This document shows, in pieces, positions 22,776 through 58,432 of a DNA stretch of 64,000 nt. Origin of the DNA: Bispira polyomma (taxonomy: Eukaryota). Location of the stretch: contig OZ287751.1 in assembly GCA_965649765.1 (NCBI GenBank), forward strand, positions 85,994,001 to 86,058,000, given 5' to 3'. A program made the position numbers and the translations under genes. Positions within the stretch are counted from its first letter, which is position 1. The number at the start of each line of letters is the position of its first letter. The notes under the pieces were generated by a model. The model saw only the letters and a program-made list of their open reading frames with translations, was not told where the DNA came from and did not search any database.

Positions 22776-25040
22776 ATTGTAATTGTAATTAGACTTTTAT
22801 TGCGCTTAATCTCCCCTTAACAAAGGGGACTCTAAGGCGCACCAGCACAAAAGACAGTTATCCAATTTCCAAAATCAAGGGACAGACAAAGGGTCAGCAA
22901 CATAGAGCACGTCGGGGGATGATTGAGACTAATGTGGATATGCTTTAGTGTACAAGTGGATTTTAAGCTTCTTTCTAAAACAGGCTAGTGAGGGGGAAGC
23001 ACGAATCACATCAGGAAGACCATTCCAAACAATGGGAGCATCAAAAGCAAAGCTGTGACCAAACTGTTTAACCAACTTTTGAGTAGATGGGTGGAACTTT
23101 GGAACAACAAGGAAATTGCTACCACTCTGACTACGTCTGGTATTGTAGGAACTACTGTAAGTGGAAAGATATGGGGCAAAATACTTTCGAAACCCAGTGT
23201 GGAGAAACTTATAAACAAGTGTAGCTGTCTTAAACACTGAACGCTGTTCAGCAGGGAGCCAATGCAATTTCTTAAGAACAGGAGTTATACTAGTGTATCG
23301 ACTGGTGTTTGACACAATTCTAGCTGCACTATTTTGAATGCATTATAATTTGCGTAAATTAAACTTTGAGAGACTCCTGAAAAGTGAATTGCAGTAATCC
23401 AGTCTACTACTGACAAAAGCATTGGCCACAAGTATAGAAGCATCATAAGTGAGAAACCGTCTGACACGTCTAAAGTCACAGAGTTGCATAAAACAGCTTT
23501 TGCAGACACTCTGAAGGTGTTTAGAGAAAGAAAAGTCAGAGTCAAACCATACACCCAGGTTCTTGACAGAATCAACTGGACTGAAAGGGCTATCCAGGAT
23601 GTCAACTGGAAACAATGCTTTCAACTTATCCCTCTGTTGTTTTGAGCCAAAGATTATGAACTCAGTGTTGTCGAGATTAAGTTTGAGTTTACCAGTTGAC
23701 AACCACTCTTTCACATCGTCAAGGCACCTGTTCAACTGTTCAAAGGCAGTAGATGTGTTTTTATGGGATAGGTGCACATAAATTTGGGTATCATCTGCAT
23801 AAAAATGAAACTTTATTCCTGTGTATTTGCCAATAACCAATCTGAGAGGGGCAGTGTGTAATGAGAACAACAGAGGGCCCAAAACAGAACCTTGAGGGAC
23901 ACCAAACAAGAGTTTACAAAGATCGGACAGAGAAGAGCCAATTTTTATCGACTGACAACGATTAGTTAAGTAGGAAGTGAACCATTTAAGAACAGAGCCC
24001 CTAACTCCAAACCAAGTCTGAAGACAACTGAGAAGCGTGGAATGATCAATGGTATCAAAGGCAGCAGAGAGGTCGAGCAATACCAGGGCAGTAGGTTCCC
24101 CTCTTGACAAAGACAGGTGAACTTCATTGTTTATAGACAGAAGAGCTGTCTCAGTCGAATGACCAGTTTTGTACGCAGACTGGTATGGGTTGCCTAAGTC
24201 GTGGACAAAGATGTGATCTAACAGTTGCATAGCAACCACGCGTTCAACCAGTTTTGATATGAAACTAAGACCAGATACAGGGCGATAATTCTTCAGGTCA
24301 TCAACTGGAAGAGAAGCCTTCTTAATAAGAGGAGTAACCCCAGCTGTTTTAAAACCATCAGGTACATCAGGTCCCTCCGCAAGTGAGCAGTTTACAAGCT
24401 TTGTAATGGATGATAGTAATACATCACTACATTCTTTAATAAGAAATGTTGGCCATGGATCCAACATGCAGGATTTTGTAGGCGAGTTACTTATTATTTT
24501 ACTAACATCATCTTCAGAGACTCTGGTAATTTCTGGGGGATCAGAAAGAGGATGGACATCAATTTTAGTTCCAGAGACAGCAAAAGTATCTCTAATTCTC
24601 TTAATTTTGTTTGAAAAAAAGGAAGCAAACTTATCAGCTAGTGATTTATCAGAATCATCGGACGGGAGTGCCACATTGGTATCCATATTAAGGGTCTTGC
24701 GCAATGCGTGCCACAGCTTCCTGGAGTTGTGACTGTTGTCAGAGATAAGTTTGCTGTAATACACCGACTTATCCTCGTTAACAAGTACATTGCACCGAGC
24801 AATCTGGCGACGTAGTCGACTTCTATTTAATGGATTCTTGGCCCTTCGCCAAGTTCTTTCATATTGGCGCCTGAAAGATTTTGCCCGTCGGTAAGAGTCA
24901 GAGAGCCAATGCACAGAATCTTTCTTTGACATTCTGGATACAAGTGGTGCATGCTTATCTAGTACATCACCCAAGTCATGTATGTATTGTCGATAAAGTT
25001 TGGCTACAGAATTGGCTGGTGACTTAATAAAGGAAGTACT
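22776..25040 (-). mobile_element. L2-clade LINE (element A), 5'-truncated
   Basis: RT ORF, 3' stem-loop gcgccttagagtccccttt..aggggagattaagcgc and (ATTACA)n tail. Confidence 0.95.
22929..25040 (-). pseudogene. L2 ORF2 reverse transcriptase, one nonsense codon
   Basis: NYRPVS, DLSAAFDT, GVPQGSVLGP, YADD, SRLDYCNSL, ITPVLKKLHWLP. ORFs 23343-24974 and 22929-23315 are in frame and split only by TAA at 23343-23345. Confidence 0.95.
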
Positions 25041-25044
25041 ACAT

Positions 25045-27332
25045 CAGCCTTTCGAGCATCTTTTTGCCCAATCAATTACCCACAAAAGGCTAGTTCATTC
25101 AAACTTATTACAATCCTTCTGGCAGGTGATATCGCGAAGTAGCCCTGGCCCAATTCAGTTCGGATTTAGAAATGCCCGCTCATTGCGGAATAAAGGCCCT
25201 GTCATGGTATTTTTGATGAAGAACAACTACAAATGTCAATTAGTTGCTACACATAGTTTTACATCTTTCGAACTCATCCTTGTCTCTGCTCACCGAAAAA
25301 CCACTGTTTAAATTTTGCAACAGTTTATCGGCCTCCTGGCTCAAGGTGTTCTTGAATCTTTCAACAGTTCTAGAATCTTGCAATCTTATCCAACACATAT
25401 ACTTCCTTACCCATATTTACTGGCATACACTAGACTGCCTGTTAACTCCGACTGACTTCAATAGTATCAGAAACATAAAAAACATTGTTTGCATCAGTGA
25501 TCATTTTTCAATATCCTGTGAAATTGATGCTCCCTCCCCGCCATCTTTTGATGTCACACAAATCATTTTTTGGCAATTTCAAAAAATCAATATGCATGAC
25601 CTTAGACGAGAGATGGCAAATACGGCCTTCGTCAAGTCTCCTGCCAATAATGCCGCTAACCTATACACACAGTACTGTGCCGACCTTCAGTCTCTTATAG
25701 AACGCCATGTAAATCAAAGACATTGAAGAAGCCTGCACTAGAGTGGATCATCAGTACATATAATGAAATGAAGGTGCTGCGCAGACAAGCTGAACCAACA
25801 TGGCGCTGGAAAAAAACTACCGCGAACAGATCAAGACTACGCCAATGCATCACCCGGTGCAACAACACTATCAATGACTCCAAACGTGTCTACTATGCCA
25901 ACATGATCTCAAAAAGCGAGGGTGACCCAAAAAAACAGCAGAAATTTAACAGAACCCTCCACCGTAAAAACAGACTACACTACCCGAAAATAGCAATAGC
26001 AAATCACTGGCAAACATTTTTAGTACTTTTTTCACTGATAAAATTACCAGAATCCGTGATGGTTTTTTATCAGCTGCCCCAAATGCCCCTTTACCAACAG
26101 CTCCACCAACCGTCTTCAACGGTTTCTCAACAGTAACTCTTGATGAAGTAAGGAAAATTATACTGGCATCACCCGTAAAATCCTGCTTGTTAGATCCATG
26201 GCCCACATTCCTTGTTAAGGAATGTATTGACATTTTATTGTCCTCAATCACAAAATTATCAACCTCTCGTTGGTCAATGGCGTCTTTCCAAATGATTTAA
26301 AAAAGGCCATTGTCAATCCTTTAATAAAAAAACCTTCTCTTCCAAGGGATGACCTGAAAAATTACAATCCTGTTACAGGCCTTTGCTATATCTCTAAGTT
26401 GGTAGAACGTGCGGTTGCCTTACAGATCAAACAACATCTTGACGTCAGCAATCTATCCAATAAGTATCAGTCATCGTACAAAAGTGGTCATTCTACTGAG
26501 ACTGCACTACTCTGCATAAAAATTGATGTTCATACATCTTTATCTAAAGGTATGCCTACTGCCTTAGTACTGCTGGATCTGTCAGCAGCCTTTGATACTA
26601 TTGATCACAAAGTTCTTCTTGAGTGCCTATCGTCTTGGTTCGGTATCAGCGGTATGGCGCTTAAGTGGTTCACGGCATATTTGTCTGATAGATTCCAATC
26701 GGTCAAAATTGGCAATATCTTATCCGACTGCAACTTTCTGTTCCATTCCTTATCTCGTAGTGATCTCAGACGCCTTCAGAATATCCAACACTCACTGGCA
26801 CGTATTGTGACCAAAACTTCTAAATTCTCCCACATTACTCATGTACTTAAGTCACTGTACTGGCTCCCAATAAAATCTTAATTAACAATTATATATAAAT
26901 TTCTAAATTCTGGATTACCCACTTATTTCAGCCCCCATCTATCCAAATATACATGCTCAGTCAGGACAAGGCGCAGTAACCCTGATAAATTATATCTTAA
27001 TATTCCCACTTTCGACCCTCGCATCCACAAATCCAAAATTCAGTTCAATCACTGCCTAGCTCATGATGGCCCCCTCATTTGGAACAGCCTACCTGATCAT
27101 GTTCGCCTGGCTCAAATTTTCTCCTCTTTCAAGAGTAAGCTGAAGGCTTACCTTTTTGAATAGGCTTTTCCACCTTAGCCGTCACAACTATTCAGGTAGT
27201 CATCCTGGTTACGACTTCCATCCACCCACTGATTTTTAATTTTCGATTAAAGTTTTGGTTTGTTGCGCCTTAGAATTTGTTGTACAAAAATTAAGCGCCA
27301 TAAAAGTACGACTAGATTAGATTAGATTAGAT
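25045..27332 (+). mobile_element. L2-clade LINE (element B) with 2A-like peptide, APE endonuclease and internally deleted RT
   Basis: LLAGDI..PGP, NARSLRNK, VYRPP, HTLD, SDH, DPWPT, DLSAAFDT, HITHVLKSLYWLP. 3' stem-loop and (TAGAT)n tail at ~27313-27332. Confidence 0.92.
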
Positions 27333-29846: not shown

Positions 29847-30789
29847 TCACTTCTGAACTTCATTCAATAATTCACTTTCATCCGTGCACATTTGATTGCA
29901 ATGCCCAATCAGTGCTTTGTTGCAGTTTTTAGTATTTGTCCTGTCACAAACATCAGTATTCACATTAGAGATTTTATTCAAGAGGACCCTATTAGTCTTT
30001 CCAGTCTCTGCCGTGTGGAGGTCATTCTTTACCATCTTCAGCTGACTCTCCAGATCATGCACCAGGTTGACTGTTGGTAGCAACAATGGCCCTCGCTTGG
30101 GATATAATGTATTAAGTTTGATATTTTTACTGTTTATTAGCACTGGTCTACCCATTGTCTTTTTTCCCTCTTTCTTCAGAGTAGTATCAGTTTCTGCCAC
30201 TCTACATTTATACATATATTCTCCTTGTCTGTTCAGCTGATAAACCTGAAAGCCAGAAAAGAAGACACTGGCGAACCAGATCACAATTGCATTGACCAGG
30301 TCAGTGTTCTGGTCTGTGCTGACCATGTCATTCAACACATATAACAACAGCAGAGTCAAAGGCAGAAGCATTCTGAAGATGATGATAGCTACGAACTCCA
30401 CTACAGCAAAGTTTCGGCGCACCATCCTCCAGTGGGCCCTATTGATGAGTTTCATTAGCCTGTGCATGGTAGCAATGATGTTGCTCATTTCCATAATGAT
30501 TCCAATAATGACATACCACCAGTTGTGCCGGGTGAGCAGTATGGCAGTTAGGAAGAGAATGACCGCTGTGTGGTGTATCAGCCGTATGGCAGTACCTCTC
30601 TGGAAGAGCTGGCAGTGGATGATGATGCCACTTCGGAAGAGGTAGCGGGCCAGGTTGATGCAGACCACACAGAGGAGAGAGGTGGGTGGGCTGGTTGTGG
30701 TATCTAGATAGTCTTGAGGCCAGCGGAGGGTGATACAGGTATAGACTGTGAACACTATTAGTAAACTGTTCACTACTTCATCTACAACA
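29847..30789 (-). CDS. TLC (TRAM/LAG1/CLN8) domain membrane protein, last coding exon
   Basis: Acceptor tttttgtatttccag at 30790. Long open frame with raised GC. Several hydrophobic helices with LIHH, IMEMSN and IIFR motifs in TLC order. Stop TGA at 29849-29847. Confidence 0.8.
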
Positions 30790-30847
30790 CTGGAAATACA
30801 AAAATTCTAAACATGTATATATGTATGTGACTTTAGATTTTGCATTT

Positions 30848-36569: not shown

Positions 36570-36858
36570 TATTATTATTATTATTATAGATTTTTAACGC
36601 GCTTTATTGATGCTAGGCATCTTCTAAAGCGCAACAGCAGAATCATTAGTCCAATCATTAAGTCCATGGAAATTGCAAAGTCGTAAGGAAGGAAGTGGGA
36701 GCGTGCACGAGGAAAGCTAAGGTGGGTAGGCAAGGTTGAAAAGATAGGTTTTAAGCTTTTTCCTAAAACCGATAAGTGTGTCAACTGATCTGAGGTCAAC
36801 TGGGAGACTGTTCCATAACCATGGAGCTGCGGTGGAGAACGCTCTGAAACCCGCCTTC
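36570..36858 (-). mobile_element. L2 LINE short 3' end copy
   Basis: 3' stem-loop gcgctttagaagatgcctagcatcaataaagcgc and (AAT)n tail. Paralogous to 36859-37140. Confidence 0.8.
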
Positions 36859-37893
36859 ATTGTATTGTATTGTACATTTTTAACGCACCTTATTGATGCT
36901 AGGCATCTCCTGAGGTCAACATCAGAATCAATCAGCCAAGAAAAAAAATCAAAAAAACATAGCCAGGTCGTAAGGATGGATGCGTCAGTGCCAGGGAGAG
37001 GACTATGGCAGATAGGCTAGCCTAAAGATAGGTTTTAAGCTTTCTCCTAAATCCAGAAAGTGTTTCAAACAGTCTTAGCTCAACTGGAAGGCTGTTCCAT
37101 AACATAGGGTCAACGGCCGAGAAGACTCTAGATCCAGCATTTTTTTAGAGCAAACAGAAAGTCTTCTTTCCCTTTTAAGGCTGCTAAAGGAGAGTTTAGT
37201 AGCGAGGTAGTGAGACTGTGGAGAGACAACAAGTGGTTATGTGCATGTTAAACAGGATTCGATAGTGAAAAGTAAGCCAGTGGAGTTTCTTGAGGTATGG
37301 AGTGACATCAGTACGGATTCCCAAACGAATAATGACTAGTTTTGAATGGACTGCAACTTGTTTTTGTGGGACTTATTAGCTCCATACAGAAGAGAATTAC
37401 AGTAGTCAAGGCGGCTACTTACAAGAGTGTTGGCCACAGTGATAGCAGTATCTTGTGACAGATAATTTCTGATTCTTTTGAGGTCTTGAATATAATAGTA
37501 ACAGGAGCGGCGGATGTTGTTAATGTGAGGAAAAAATAAAAAAGCAGGGTTGATAGTGACACCTTGGTTTTTGACCTGGTCTGAAGGTTGAATCTCATTG
37601 CCCAGCAGTGTGATTAGGAAAAGTGATCTCAAGTATTCACTGTGTTTCTTATTTCCAATTAGGATGAATTCAGTTTTGTCAGGGTTTAGTTTCAGTTTGG
37701 AGTAGTTCATTCATACCTGAACTGAGCAGAGACTGTCGGCAAGTAAATCCAGGTTGTATCCGGGATTCTGAGTGTCAAGAGAGAGAGATAGATTTGAGTG
37801 TCAGCAGCATACATTTGATGTTTAACATTGTGATTATTGATGACTGCACTTAGAGGATGGGTGTAGAGGGTAAAACGTAGAGGGCCGAGAACT
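36859..37893 (-). mobile_element. L2 LINE 3' fragment (RT C-terminal half)
   Basis: VLGPL, MYAADTQI (YADD mutated), LKLNPDKTE, SRLDYCNSLL and a (TACAA)n tail. Confidence 0.9.
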
Positions 37894-39530: not shown

Positions 39531-40078
39531 ACTAATAACTAATTGTAATAGACATTTATAGGGCTTAATCTCTGAAAATAACCAGATTCTAAGGCGCATA
39601 AGCTTTAGACAATGACAATAGCTTATGTATCCGTTAGACAGGCAATAGGTCCAGCTCATGGATACGCCGGGAAACTGAGGTGGAAAGGCCTTCCTGAACA
39701 AATAGGGTTTAAGCTTTTGTCTAAAACAGGCTAGAGGGGGCGGAATTTCGTGAGACTTACTCCAAAGATTGATCATGTTTTGTTGGCCACATCTGTGATT
39801 TCAGATAAATTCGACGTTATCTCACCAAATCCACTGCAATCACTGTTGCCAATGCCTTGGTCAGCAGTAGGCTTGATTACTGCAACTCTCTGTTCCGTTC
39901 CCTATCTTATAGTGACCTCAAACGCCTTCAGAACGTTCAACACGCATTGGCTCGCATTGTGGCTAAAACCTCTAAATTTTCTTATATTACTCCTGTCCTC
40001 AAGTCACTCCCAATCAAATACCGTGTTGCTTTCAAAACTGGTGGCTCCCAATCAAATACCGTGTTGCTTTCAAAACTG
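39531..40078. mobile_element. L2 fragment with 5' inversion
   Basis: Minus-strand 3' end (PPLACFRQKLKPYLFRKAFPP plus stem-loop, 39531-~39755) fused to a plus-strand upstream RT piece (IRRYLT..SRLDYCNSL..PIKYRVAFK, ~39768-40078). Confidence 0.85.
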
Positions 40079-57235: not shown

Positions 57236-58432
57236 CACTGGCCAAATTAAAATCCAGGCGGATTTTAAATCCGCCTAGGCGAGATTAAAATTCTAATATC
57301 GCCTAGGCGAAATCAAAATTTTAATCTCGCCCAGGCGGATTTAAAATCTTATTTCGCCAAGGTGGAATTAAAATTTCCAAGTTTGTCTAATAGAATTTTA
57401 ATCTCGCCTAGGCGGATTTAAAATCTGCCTGGACCAAATTAAAATTTGGATTTTGCCTAGGCGGATTTAAAATCTGCCTTGGTGAGATTAAAATAGGGGA
57501 AATTAAAATAAATATTTCATTTATGCATGCAGTAAAAGTATAGATAACAACCTTAAAATGGAACTTATTTTACTTCTTGTTAAAGCACTTTCCATTCATG
57601 GTTTAAAGCATTAATGCATACATGGAATATAATGGTAACTCCATTAATCAAAATGCTGAATGAAATTTAAACTTAACAACACCAATAGTTTTTTTTGTTT
57701 TGTTTACACGACACTACATTAAAATCCATTTTTTTTTTACTAGCTTAATATGTATTATTAGTGTATTATCAGTGTAATATTTCCTTATTAGGGGTAGTAC
57801 ATGGGTGTCAAAAGGTTTGGAATTTGTGTTTATTGGTAAAGTATAGAATGCAAAACACTGTAACTGCAATTAATGTTTGCACTGAAAAATCACATGCTTA
57901 ACAAAGCTTAAGGATGTAATCATTCATGCCTTTTCAAAAACTCCAAAGTGGTTATCCCCAAAGACTTTCTTGGTGCACTGCTCTTCTATATGTGATCAGG
58001 AATAAATTGGTAGCACTTGGTAGTGTCTGAATTAATGTTTTAAACTATGAATGAAACGTACTTTATGAAGAAATGATGTTAATAATTAATGTAACTACTA
58101 TAATCTATGAATGAATTAATTTTTTAAACCATGAATGCAAAGTGCTTTACAAAGAAATAAAATAAGTTCAATTTTAAGGCCTTTATTCATACTTTTACTG
58201 CATACATAAATGAAAAAATTATAATTTCCCTTAATCTGAAATTTTAATTCCCCCTATTTTAATCTCACCTAGGCGAATTAAAATCCGCCTGGNNNNNNNN
58301 NNNNNNNNNNNNNNNNNNNNNNNNNNNNNNNNNNNNNNNNNNNNNNNNNNNNNNNNNNNNNNNNNNNNNNNNNNNNNNNNNNNNNNNNNNNNNNNNNNNN
58401 NNNNNNNNNNNNNNNNNNNNNNNNNNNNNNNN
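57236..58432. mobile_element. Foldback element with long TIRs and subterminal repeats (CACTA/EnSpm-like); right end inferred to lie in the assembly gap
   Basis: Starts CACTG. Arrays of cgcctaggcg/attaaaat repeats at 57241-57495. 57480-57620 is the reverse complement of ~58110-58275, and the repeats resume just before the Ns. Confidence 0.75.
58293..58432. other. Assembly gap (140 N)
   Basis: Run of N. Confidence 1.

Follow-up and report, generated by a model that had tools for sequence, protein, structure and literature searches.

Two truncated LINE copies lie head to head in the window, the 64,000-nucleotide stretch of Bispira polyomma DNA that was analysed here (Table 1). The copy on the plus strand is 93.4% identical to subfamily 1 of its family over 2,113 aligned ORF bases, and 5' truncation has removed its first 59 codons together with the start codon and the hydrophobic N-terminus. 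The remainder carries deletions of 153, about 110-130 and 528 nt as well as several 1-nt frameshifts, and the 528-nt deletion, which follows position 26726, takes out the PQGS and YADD motifs. This copy is dead, and no protein can be made through its motif. The label 'L2-like' is based on SRLDYCN, HITP..LHWLP and a tandem-repeat tail, which were seen in the sequences and which we take to be signatures of that group.

Table 1. Features of the two truncated LINE copies in the window
Feature	Positions	Strand	Remarks
Copy of a second L2-like family, 5'-truncated	22776..25040	-	head to head with the plus-strand copy
21 nt between the two truncated copies	25041..25061	.	match neither family
Single-ORF L2-like LINE copy, decayed and 5'-truncated	25062..27332	+	begins at ORF codon 60
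Last 13 codons of the leader	25062..25100	+	upstream of KLIT
2A-like element	25101..25152	+	hydrophobic helix KLITILLA, then GDI..PGP; GDIASNPGP in the family
10-nt break	25134..25143	+	Ala codon, inserted A, Ser codon, then AGC (Ser) in place of the Asn codon
APE endonuclease domain remnant	25153..25540 (end approximate)	+	internal deletions
Reverse-transcriptase remnant	26231..26881	+	
3' UTR	27176..27332	+	ends in four TAGAT repeats (27313-27332)

The preliminary description reported a 2A-like motif split across two frames, KLITILLAGDI-[10 nt]-PGP, and this is confirmed. Frame 1 reads KLITILLAGDI at 25101-25133 and ends at a TAG (25140-25142), and PGP (25144-25152) lies in another frame. 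Measured against the family's GCG-AGT-AAC, the break contains one extra A at 25137/25138, and the Asn codon reads AGC (Ser). The predicted skip site is between Gly (25147-25149) and Pro (25150-25152). The placement of the motif immediately upstream of the APE endonuclease also holds, as IQFGFRNARSLRNK directly follows PGP in the same frame and the first APE strand begins at residue 90 of the intact protein. The Arg in the window's FRNARS is Gly in 28 of 29 other copies. The stretch is not there by chance, since the flanks of the motif are found exactly at 630 places in the genome when the three middle motif codons are left free, and at none in the reversed control.

The minus-strand copy is 89-96% identical to loci with GDVSLNPGP; it has lost its own motif through truncation and holds a 566-aa open RT frame. 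Insertion of the plus-strand copy into the minus-strand copy was considered and rejected, as the family of the latter does not continue after 27332. Elsewhere in the window are a fragment of the GDIASNPGP family (39771-40038, plus strand, 85% identical), a more distant RT fragment (36720-37886, minus strand) and 140 N (58293-58432). A 319-aa open frame at 29847-30806 on the minus strand has a TLC (TRAM/LAG1/CLN8) domain (PF03798, E 8e-06) and looks like a host membrane-protein exon.

The family and its full-length element

A DNA search of the same genome, in which 40 of 1,726 candidates were scored, gave 30 loci. Twenty longer stretches place full-length elements at about 3.6 kb, with a common 5' end that lies about 400 nt upstream of the ATG. 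The elements have a single ORF and no ORF1; only uORFs of 11-12 codons (subfamily 2) lie upstream, and frame-breaking indels between the two subfamilies are found before the ATG and none after it. Many family copies are full length. Those of both subfamilies (L063-L067 and L072-L076) start sharply at CTTCCGG followed by GGCGGCG, which would correspond to the ETS- and YY1-like motifs found in internal Pol II promoters. At one locus (L061, G000:C2:89264877-89270520) an apparent inverted piece of the element's own 3' part lies beside its 5' end, and there is an apparent interruption near the end of the RT.

The open ORF at L111 encodes 1,037 aa, of which residues 1-88 form the leader; the 2A-like stretch corresponds to codons 73-89, the motif to residues 81-89, and the G|P junction falls at 88/89. 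Pfam assigns Exo_endo_phos to residues 107-295 and RVT_1 to 579-831. An AlphaFold2 model of residues 1-310, made with 36 relatives, predicts a helix at 2-31, low confidence over 23-67, a pre-motif helix at 70-84 of middling confidence (pLDDT 62-71) and the first endonuclease strand at 90, and the closest fold to the model is that of the LINE-1 endonuclease (E 9.5e-13). On this model, the enzyme released by a skip at G|P would begin at the edge of the APE fold.

The frame that is broken in the window is intact elsewhere in the family. GDIASNPGP stands in one frame with the endonuclease in all 29 fetched copies other than the window's, which bears out the earlier view of a 2A-like element of known kind upstream of APE, here in a single-ORF LINE with a leader. 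Among the matches listed for the pattern with free middle codons (100 of 630), the spacer is 9 nt in every case and the Glu position, judged by eye, is Ala in 93, Thr in 3, Val in 2, Gly in 1 and Glu in 1. The genome-wide pattern GD(V/I)ExNPGP has 67 matches, one of which has the codons of the GDIASNPGP family. This lone Glu copy (L041/L069) was rejected as the family form; with 96-98% identity it falls among the copies of subfamily 2, and the best reading is a change private to it. The preliminary description had expected the active family to have an intact D(V/I)ExNPGP. Its Asn is present and the motif is in one frame with APE, but Ala takes the place of the Glu, and the full motif is ruled out as the family state by the 29 copies and by the genome patterns.

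Like other elements of the class defined by Odon et al. 2013 (PMC3708506), the family has its 2A-like sequence close to the N-terminus of ORF2 and ahead of APE. G-D-(V/I) and N-P-G-P are in one frame in the family, whereas the window copy is frameshifted with Ser for Asn. A Leu-rich helical segment ends at -10, with Leu at -15, -11 and -10 and Ile at -14 and -12. Only one residue of the core octapeptide is substituted, E>A, as in class X peptides (see below), and the Glu at -5 (E14) of canonical 2A is missing. The GDIASNPGP family is a 2A-like member of the published class of APE-type retrotransposons and not a canonical 2A, because the Glu is missing from the family and not from the window copy alone.

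A genome-wide count gave 1,385 matches to patterns with Ala in place of the Glu (control 0) and 1,526 to those in which the codon at that position does not start with G (control 1). Glu-less matches stand at 2,911 versus 67 with Glu, figures that count copies rather than families and leave Gly, Val and Asp out of the Glu-less side. In most of 80 sampled loci, endonuclease or PHD-type motifs follow the motif, as judged by eye. The same genome also has canonical Glu families, with GDIETNPGP (L033-L057) and GDVEINPGP (L031/L050/L055). One of these loci, L055, is sister to a GDVSINPGP family (L083) and forms with it a natural Glu/Ser pair that has the same upstream helix. In other families (L032, L047, L099 and L126) the motif, with Glu in some and Ser in some, precedes a PHD-type Cys/His finger.

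Conservation and age of the Glu-less motif

Selection was estimated as dN/dS between the majority states of the two subfamilies (8 and 10 copies), with the copies mapped to one frame. The subfamilies are separated by a dS of 0.39 and by no indel in the ORF. Omega is 0 over codons 72-89, where 0 non-synonymous versus 4 synonymous changes are found (Fisher p 0.003), and the Ala codon itself has changed silently, being GCT in one subfamily and GCG in the other. Leader codons 1-71 have an omega of 0.35 (p 0.005) and 68% identity between the subfamilies, and the enzyme regions an omega of 0.07-0.09. Conservation of the motif equals that of the enzyme and does not exceed it, because 298 of 1,019 windows of 18 codons in the ORF are likewise unchanged. 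As judged from these substitution patterns, the Ala form is under selection, with the motif held as firmly as the enzyme, and the leader is translated.

A protein search with residues 60-310, a query that held the motif and favours motif bearers, gave 103 relatives, and 50 of them have the motif, with Ala (20), Glu (17), Ser (10), His (2) or Gln (1) at the Glu position. In a tree of 44 motif-bearing rows, computed from the part downstream of the motif and omitting P0017 and P0018, which begin inside the endonuclease, the family belongs to a clade of 35 proteins (SH-aLRT 99). Within this clade the Glu position is Ala in 17, Ser in 11, Glu in 5, Gln in 1 and Cys in 1. G-D-[VI]-x-x-N-P-G-P is otherwise unchanged in all 35, and G, D, N, P, G and P are kept in proteins about 0.7 or more changes per site from the GDIASNPGP family. 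The nine rows outside the clade all have Glu, and five changes between Glu and non-Glu suffice over the 44 rows, Glu being back in about four nested lineages. It is therefore likely that Glu was lost at the base of the clade and regained about four times. By this phylogenetic distribution the Ala/Ser form is old and widespread in the clade and not a product of recent decay. The description of the element as decayed thus fits the window copy and not the missing Glu, which is old and conserved. All 24 proteins with a full leader have Leu at -11, and 23 of them also have it at -10. Positions -19 to -10 contain 3 Leu in the GDIASNPGP family and four or more in 20 of 23 clade relatives.

The leader N-terminus

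A hydrophobic core lies within the first 35 residues of the leader, with KD11 values of 2.1-2.3 in the GDIASNPGP family. Among the 42 motif-bearing relatives whose leader has at least 55 aa, 35 possess such a core (KD11 at least 2), where shuffles expect 9.7. The same criterion picks out 5 of 40 mid-leader windows, 48 of 1,053 enzyme windows and 5 of 18 motif-less relatives that have an extension. By hydropathy, then, the leader N-terminus is signal-like in most relatives, and a signal function is putative. A crude rule for signal-peptidase sites (small residues at -3 and -1) gave no clear excess, at 15 of 25 versus 10.9 expected. Residues 1-92 gave a best score of 0.88 in the ESM Atlas and matched no Pfam family, a lead at most.

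Several further ideas were rejected. N-glycosylation sequons do not point to a lumenal role for the leader (10 seen versus 10.4 expected). Co-evolution of the signal-like N-terminus with the motif is favoured by raw counts and has no support from independent pairs (5 pairs, p about 1; 59-row tree with one chitinase fusion omitted), and P0034, P0043 and P0059 have a signal-like N-terminus without the motif. A membrane anchor would require a longer pre-motif helix than is present, 1 of 25 reaching a KD19 of 1.6.

A possible precedent is provided by sea-urchin NLR proteins, in which leaky skipping at 2A-like signals decides between a secretory and a cytosolic product (Roulston et al. 2016, PMC4981915). 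In those proteins the 2A-like peptide is itself the N-terminal signal, whereas here the signal-like stretch is about 55 residues from the motif and part of a retrotransposon. No mention of a signal-like or hydrophobic leader was found in the available parts of Odon et al. 2013, nor of a signal-like leader in those of Luke et al. (PMC3894237). A literature search that missed most subscription journals and Repbase returned, for a signal peptide with LINE, ORF2 or 2A, no papers or only unrelated ones.

Published relatives and possible functions

The elements described by Odon et al. 2013 and Luke et al. resemble this family in having a single ORF without ORF1 and a Leu-rich helix followed by GD(V/I)xxNPGP at the same N-terminal place in ORF2, which here is directly before APE. 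Ala variants were included when Odon et al. described this 2A-like class in APE-type retrotransposons, and published Ala/Ser variants include Crack-17_BF, Crack-11_BF, CR1-4_NV and CR1-L2-1_XT (GDISPNPGP). Crack-17_BF (E>A, GDVAVNPGP) had 'very low activity' and two E>S retrotransposon peptides were inactive, and Odon et al. offered two options, that Glu-less forms are decayed or that they need only low activity. Here, by contrast, Ala or Ser at this position is the rule throughout a deep clade and in most copies of the genome. Crack-11_BF, which ends in GDVASNPGP, appears without an activity in the list of Rao et al. 2025 (PMC12338488). A literature search for six Glu-less octapeptides found no main-text mention, most subscription journals and Repbase being missed. 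The family shares G11, D12, V/I13, N16, P17, G18, P19 and the upstream hydrophobic cluster with viral class A 2A (F2A, P2A; Li et al. 2026, PMC12846837), and has Ala in place of E14, which in F2A and P2A is nearly intolerant of change. In the F2A structure E14 stacks on 28S A3640, and D12 and N16 contact the ribosome tunnel; the same study found rare octapeptide variants highly active in their own context.

Larger assays give a mixed picture of Glu-less peptides. According to Baral et al. 2026 (bioRxiv 10.64898/2026.09.24.754024), no change of E14 except His exceeded 0.6 in P2A or F2A. Natural peptides with Ala at position 21, which is the Glu position as deduced from the N23-P26 numbering of that study, were active at 74% and 39%. 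Their class X, with one substitution in the (G/H)D(I/V)ExNPGP core, is like the present family in having Ala at the Glu position and many members from non-LTR elements, and only 139 of 1,969 class X peptides scored high.

Snell and Matreyek 2026 (10.64898/2026.06.17.732966, PMC13405545) labelled 20-mers in human cells with a machine classifier. In the available tables GDIASNPGP has no match, and the two closest look-alikes, ending ILLAGDVASNPGP, are non-skipping and skip in their Glu versions. A third pair behaves in the same way, and two of the five viewed pairs are reversed, the Glu-less form skipping and the Glu form not. Among the matches listed for LLAGD[IV]E (28 of 62), 16 peptides skip. 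A hand count of 28 listed peptides ending exactly in GD[IV][AS]xNPGP, related members of which are not independent, gave skipping in 6 of 9 with at least 4 Leu at -19 to -10 versus 1 of 19 with 3 or fewer (p 0.001), and 16 of these 19 are plain non-skipping. Active eukaryotic 2A-like peptides have Leu at -13 to -10 with the helix ending at -10, and these authors proposed that such peptides reduce ORF2p levels. Their 'leucine stall-helix' or reduction-class peptides are placed, as here, before the APE of ORF2p; with 3 Leu, the GDIASNPGP family is at the low edge of that class.

The reading that we prefer, and to which we give about an even chance, is that the window stretch is the broken remnant of an in-frame Glu-less 2A-like element that acts as a weak, leaky stall or skip signal and keeps free EN-RT scarce. 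The Leu/Ile helix together with D, N, P and G would slow the ribosome at Gly-Pro. Without the Glu most ribosomes would form the bond, and a skipping minority would release EN-RT starting exactly at the endonuclease fold. More tentatively, the weak skip may keep free EN-RT scarce, and the hydrophobic leader N-terminus may direct the unskipped product to membranes. Weak skipping is consistent with the in-frame motif, the conserved Ala, Leu at -11/-10 in 2A register, G|P at the APE edge, the very low activity of Crack-17_BF, the ILLAGDVASNPGP look-alikes that skip only with Glu, the family's 3 Leu and the return of Glu in about four nested lineages. Against it, the plain non-skipping of the closest look-alikes fits zero skipping equally well, the 39-74% of natural Ala peptides means that the level in the host could be high, and in the two reversed pairs it is the Glu-less form that skips. 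The many other unchanged 18-codon windows, the missing support from independent pairs for a tie between N-terminus and motif, and the bias of the protein search towards motif bearers also count against it. An extended version, which we regard as unlikely, makes of this a clade-wide valve formed by a signal-peptide leader and a tuned-down Glu-less StopGo, in which readthrough product would be lost to the ER and a few skips would release the sole cytosolic EN-RT, at a rate set by Leu number and Glu/Ala/Ser swaps.

Alternatively, there could be no skipping, and the former 2A motif would be kept for another job, such as a pause without release, a protease site or a helix-turn linker before the endonuclease, with ORF2p remaining one chain with its leader. 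We consider this rather doubtful, though the closest tested look-alikes, the plain non-skipping of 16 of the 19 Glu-less peptides that have at most 3 Leu, the inactive E>S peptides and the E14 changes in P2A and F2A, of which only His passed 0.6, all speak for it. The conserved residues are, however, exactly the F2A tunnel contacts (D12, N16) plus PGP, with Leu in 2A register, and the helix before the motif lacks the length of a membrane anchor and is modelled with middling confidence. Efficient 'class X' StopGo in the host, where the native upstream context or the host ribosome would offset the missing Glu and the leader would be freed from most EN-RT, as the preliminary description supposed for the active family, is the less likely reading because the nearest peptides with reporter data are non-skipping, and we hold it to be quite improbable. 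It would agree with the natural Ala peptides active at 39-74%, with the rare octapeptide variants, with the Glu-less state of the most numerous families in the genome (by pattern matches) and with the signal-like leader, which is easier to explain if it is cut off; it is at odds with the very low activity of Crack-17_BF and with the 3 Leu at -19 to -10, a class in which 1 of 19 peptides skips without Glu. The second option of Odon et al., raised by them for CR1 elements, is a neutral relic, a once-active 2A knocked out by E>A and drifting away. Retrotransposition did continue without the Glu, given the intact L111 ORF and copies 1-4.5% from their majority. This account is nevertheless very unlikely, being contradicted by the conservation of the motif, in which no non-synonymous change accompanies the four synonymous ones beside a leader with an omega of 0.35, and in which G, D, N, P, G and P persist in all 35 clade proteins at the distances given above.

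Elements of this class, Ala variants among them, have been described in the literature since 2013, and what is of use here is evidence that Glu-less motifs are maintained. The finding bears on the question raised by Odon et al. of whether Glu-less LINE motifs are decayed or retained; a deep clade and the most numerous families of the genome have retained them. The natural Ala, Ser and Glu swaps in near-identical contexts, together with the intact 1,037-aa ORF, form a series in which one could test what level of skipping a retrotransposon requires and what can substitute for E14 in the ribosome tunnel. Membrane targeting would be an added control on the supply of LINE protein, provided that the signal-like leader is genuine.
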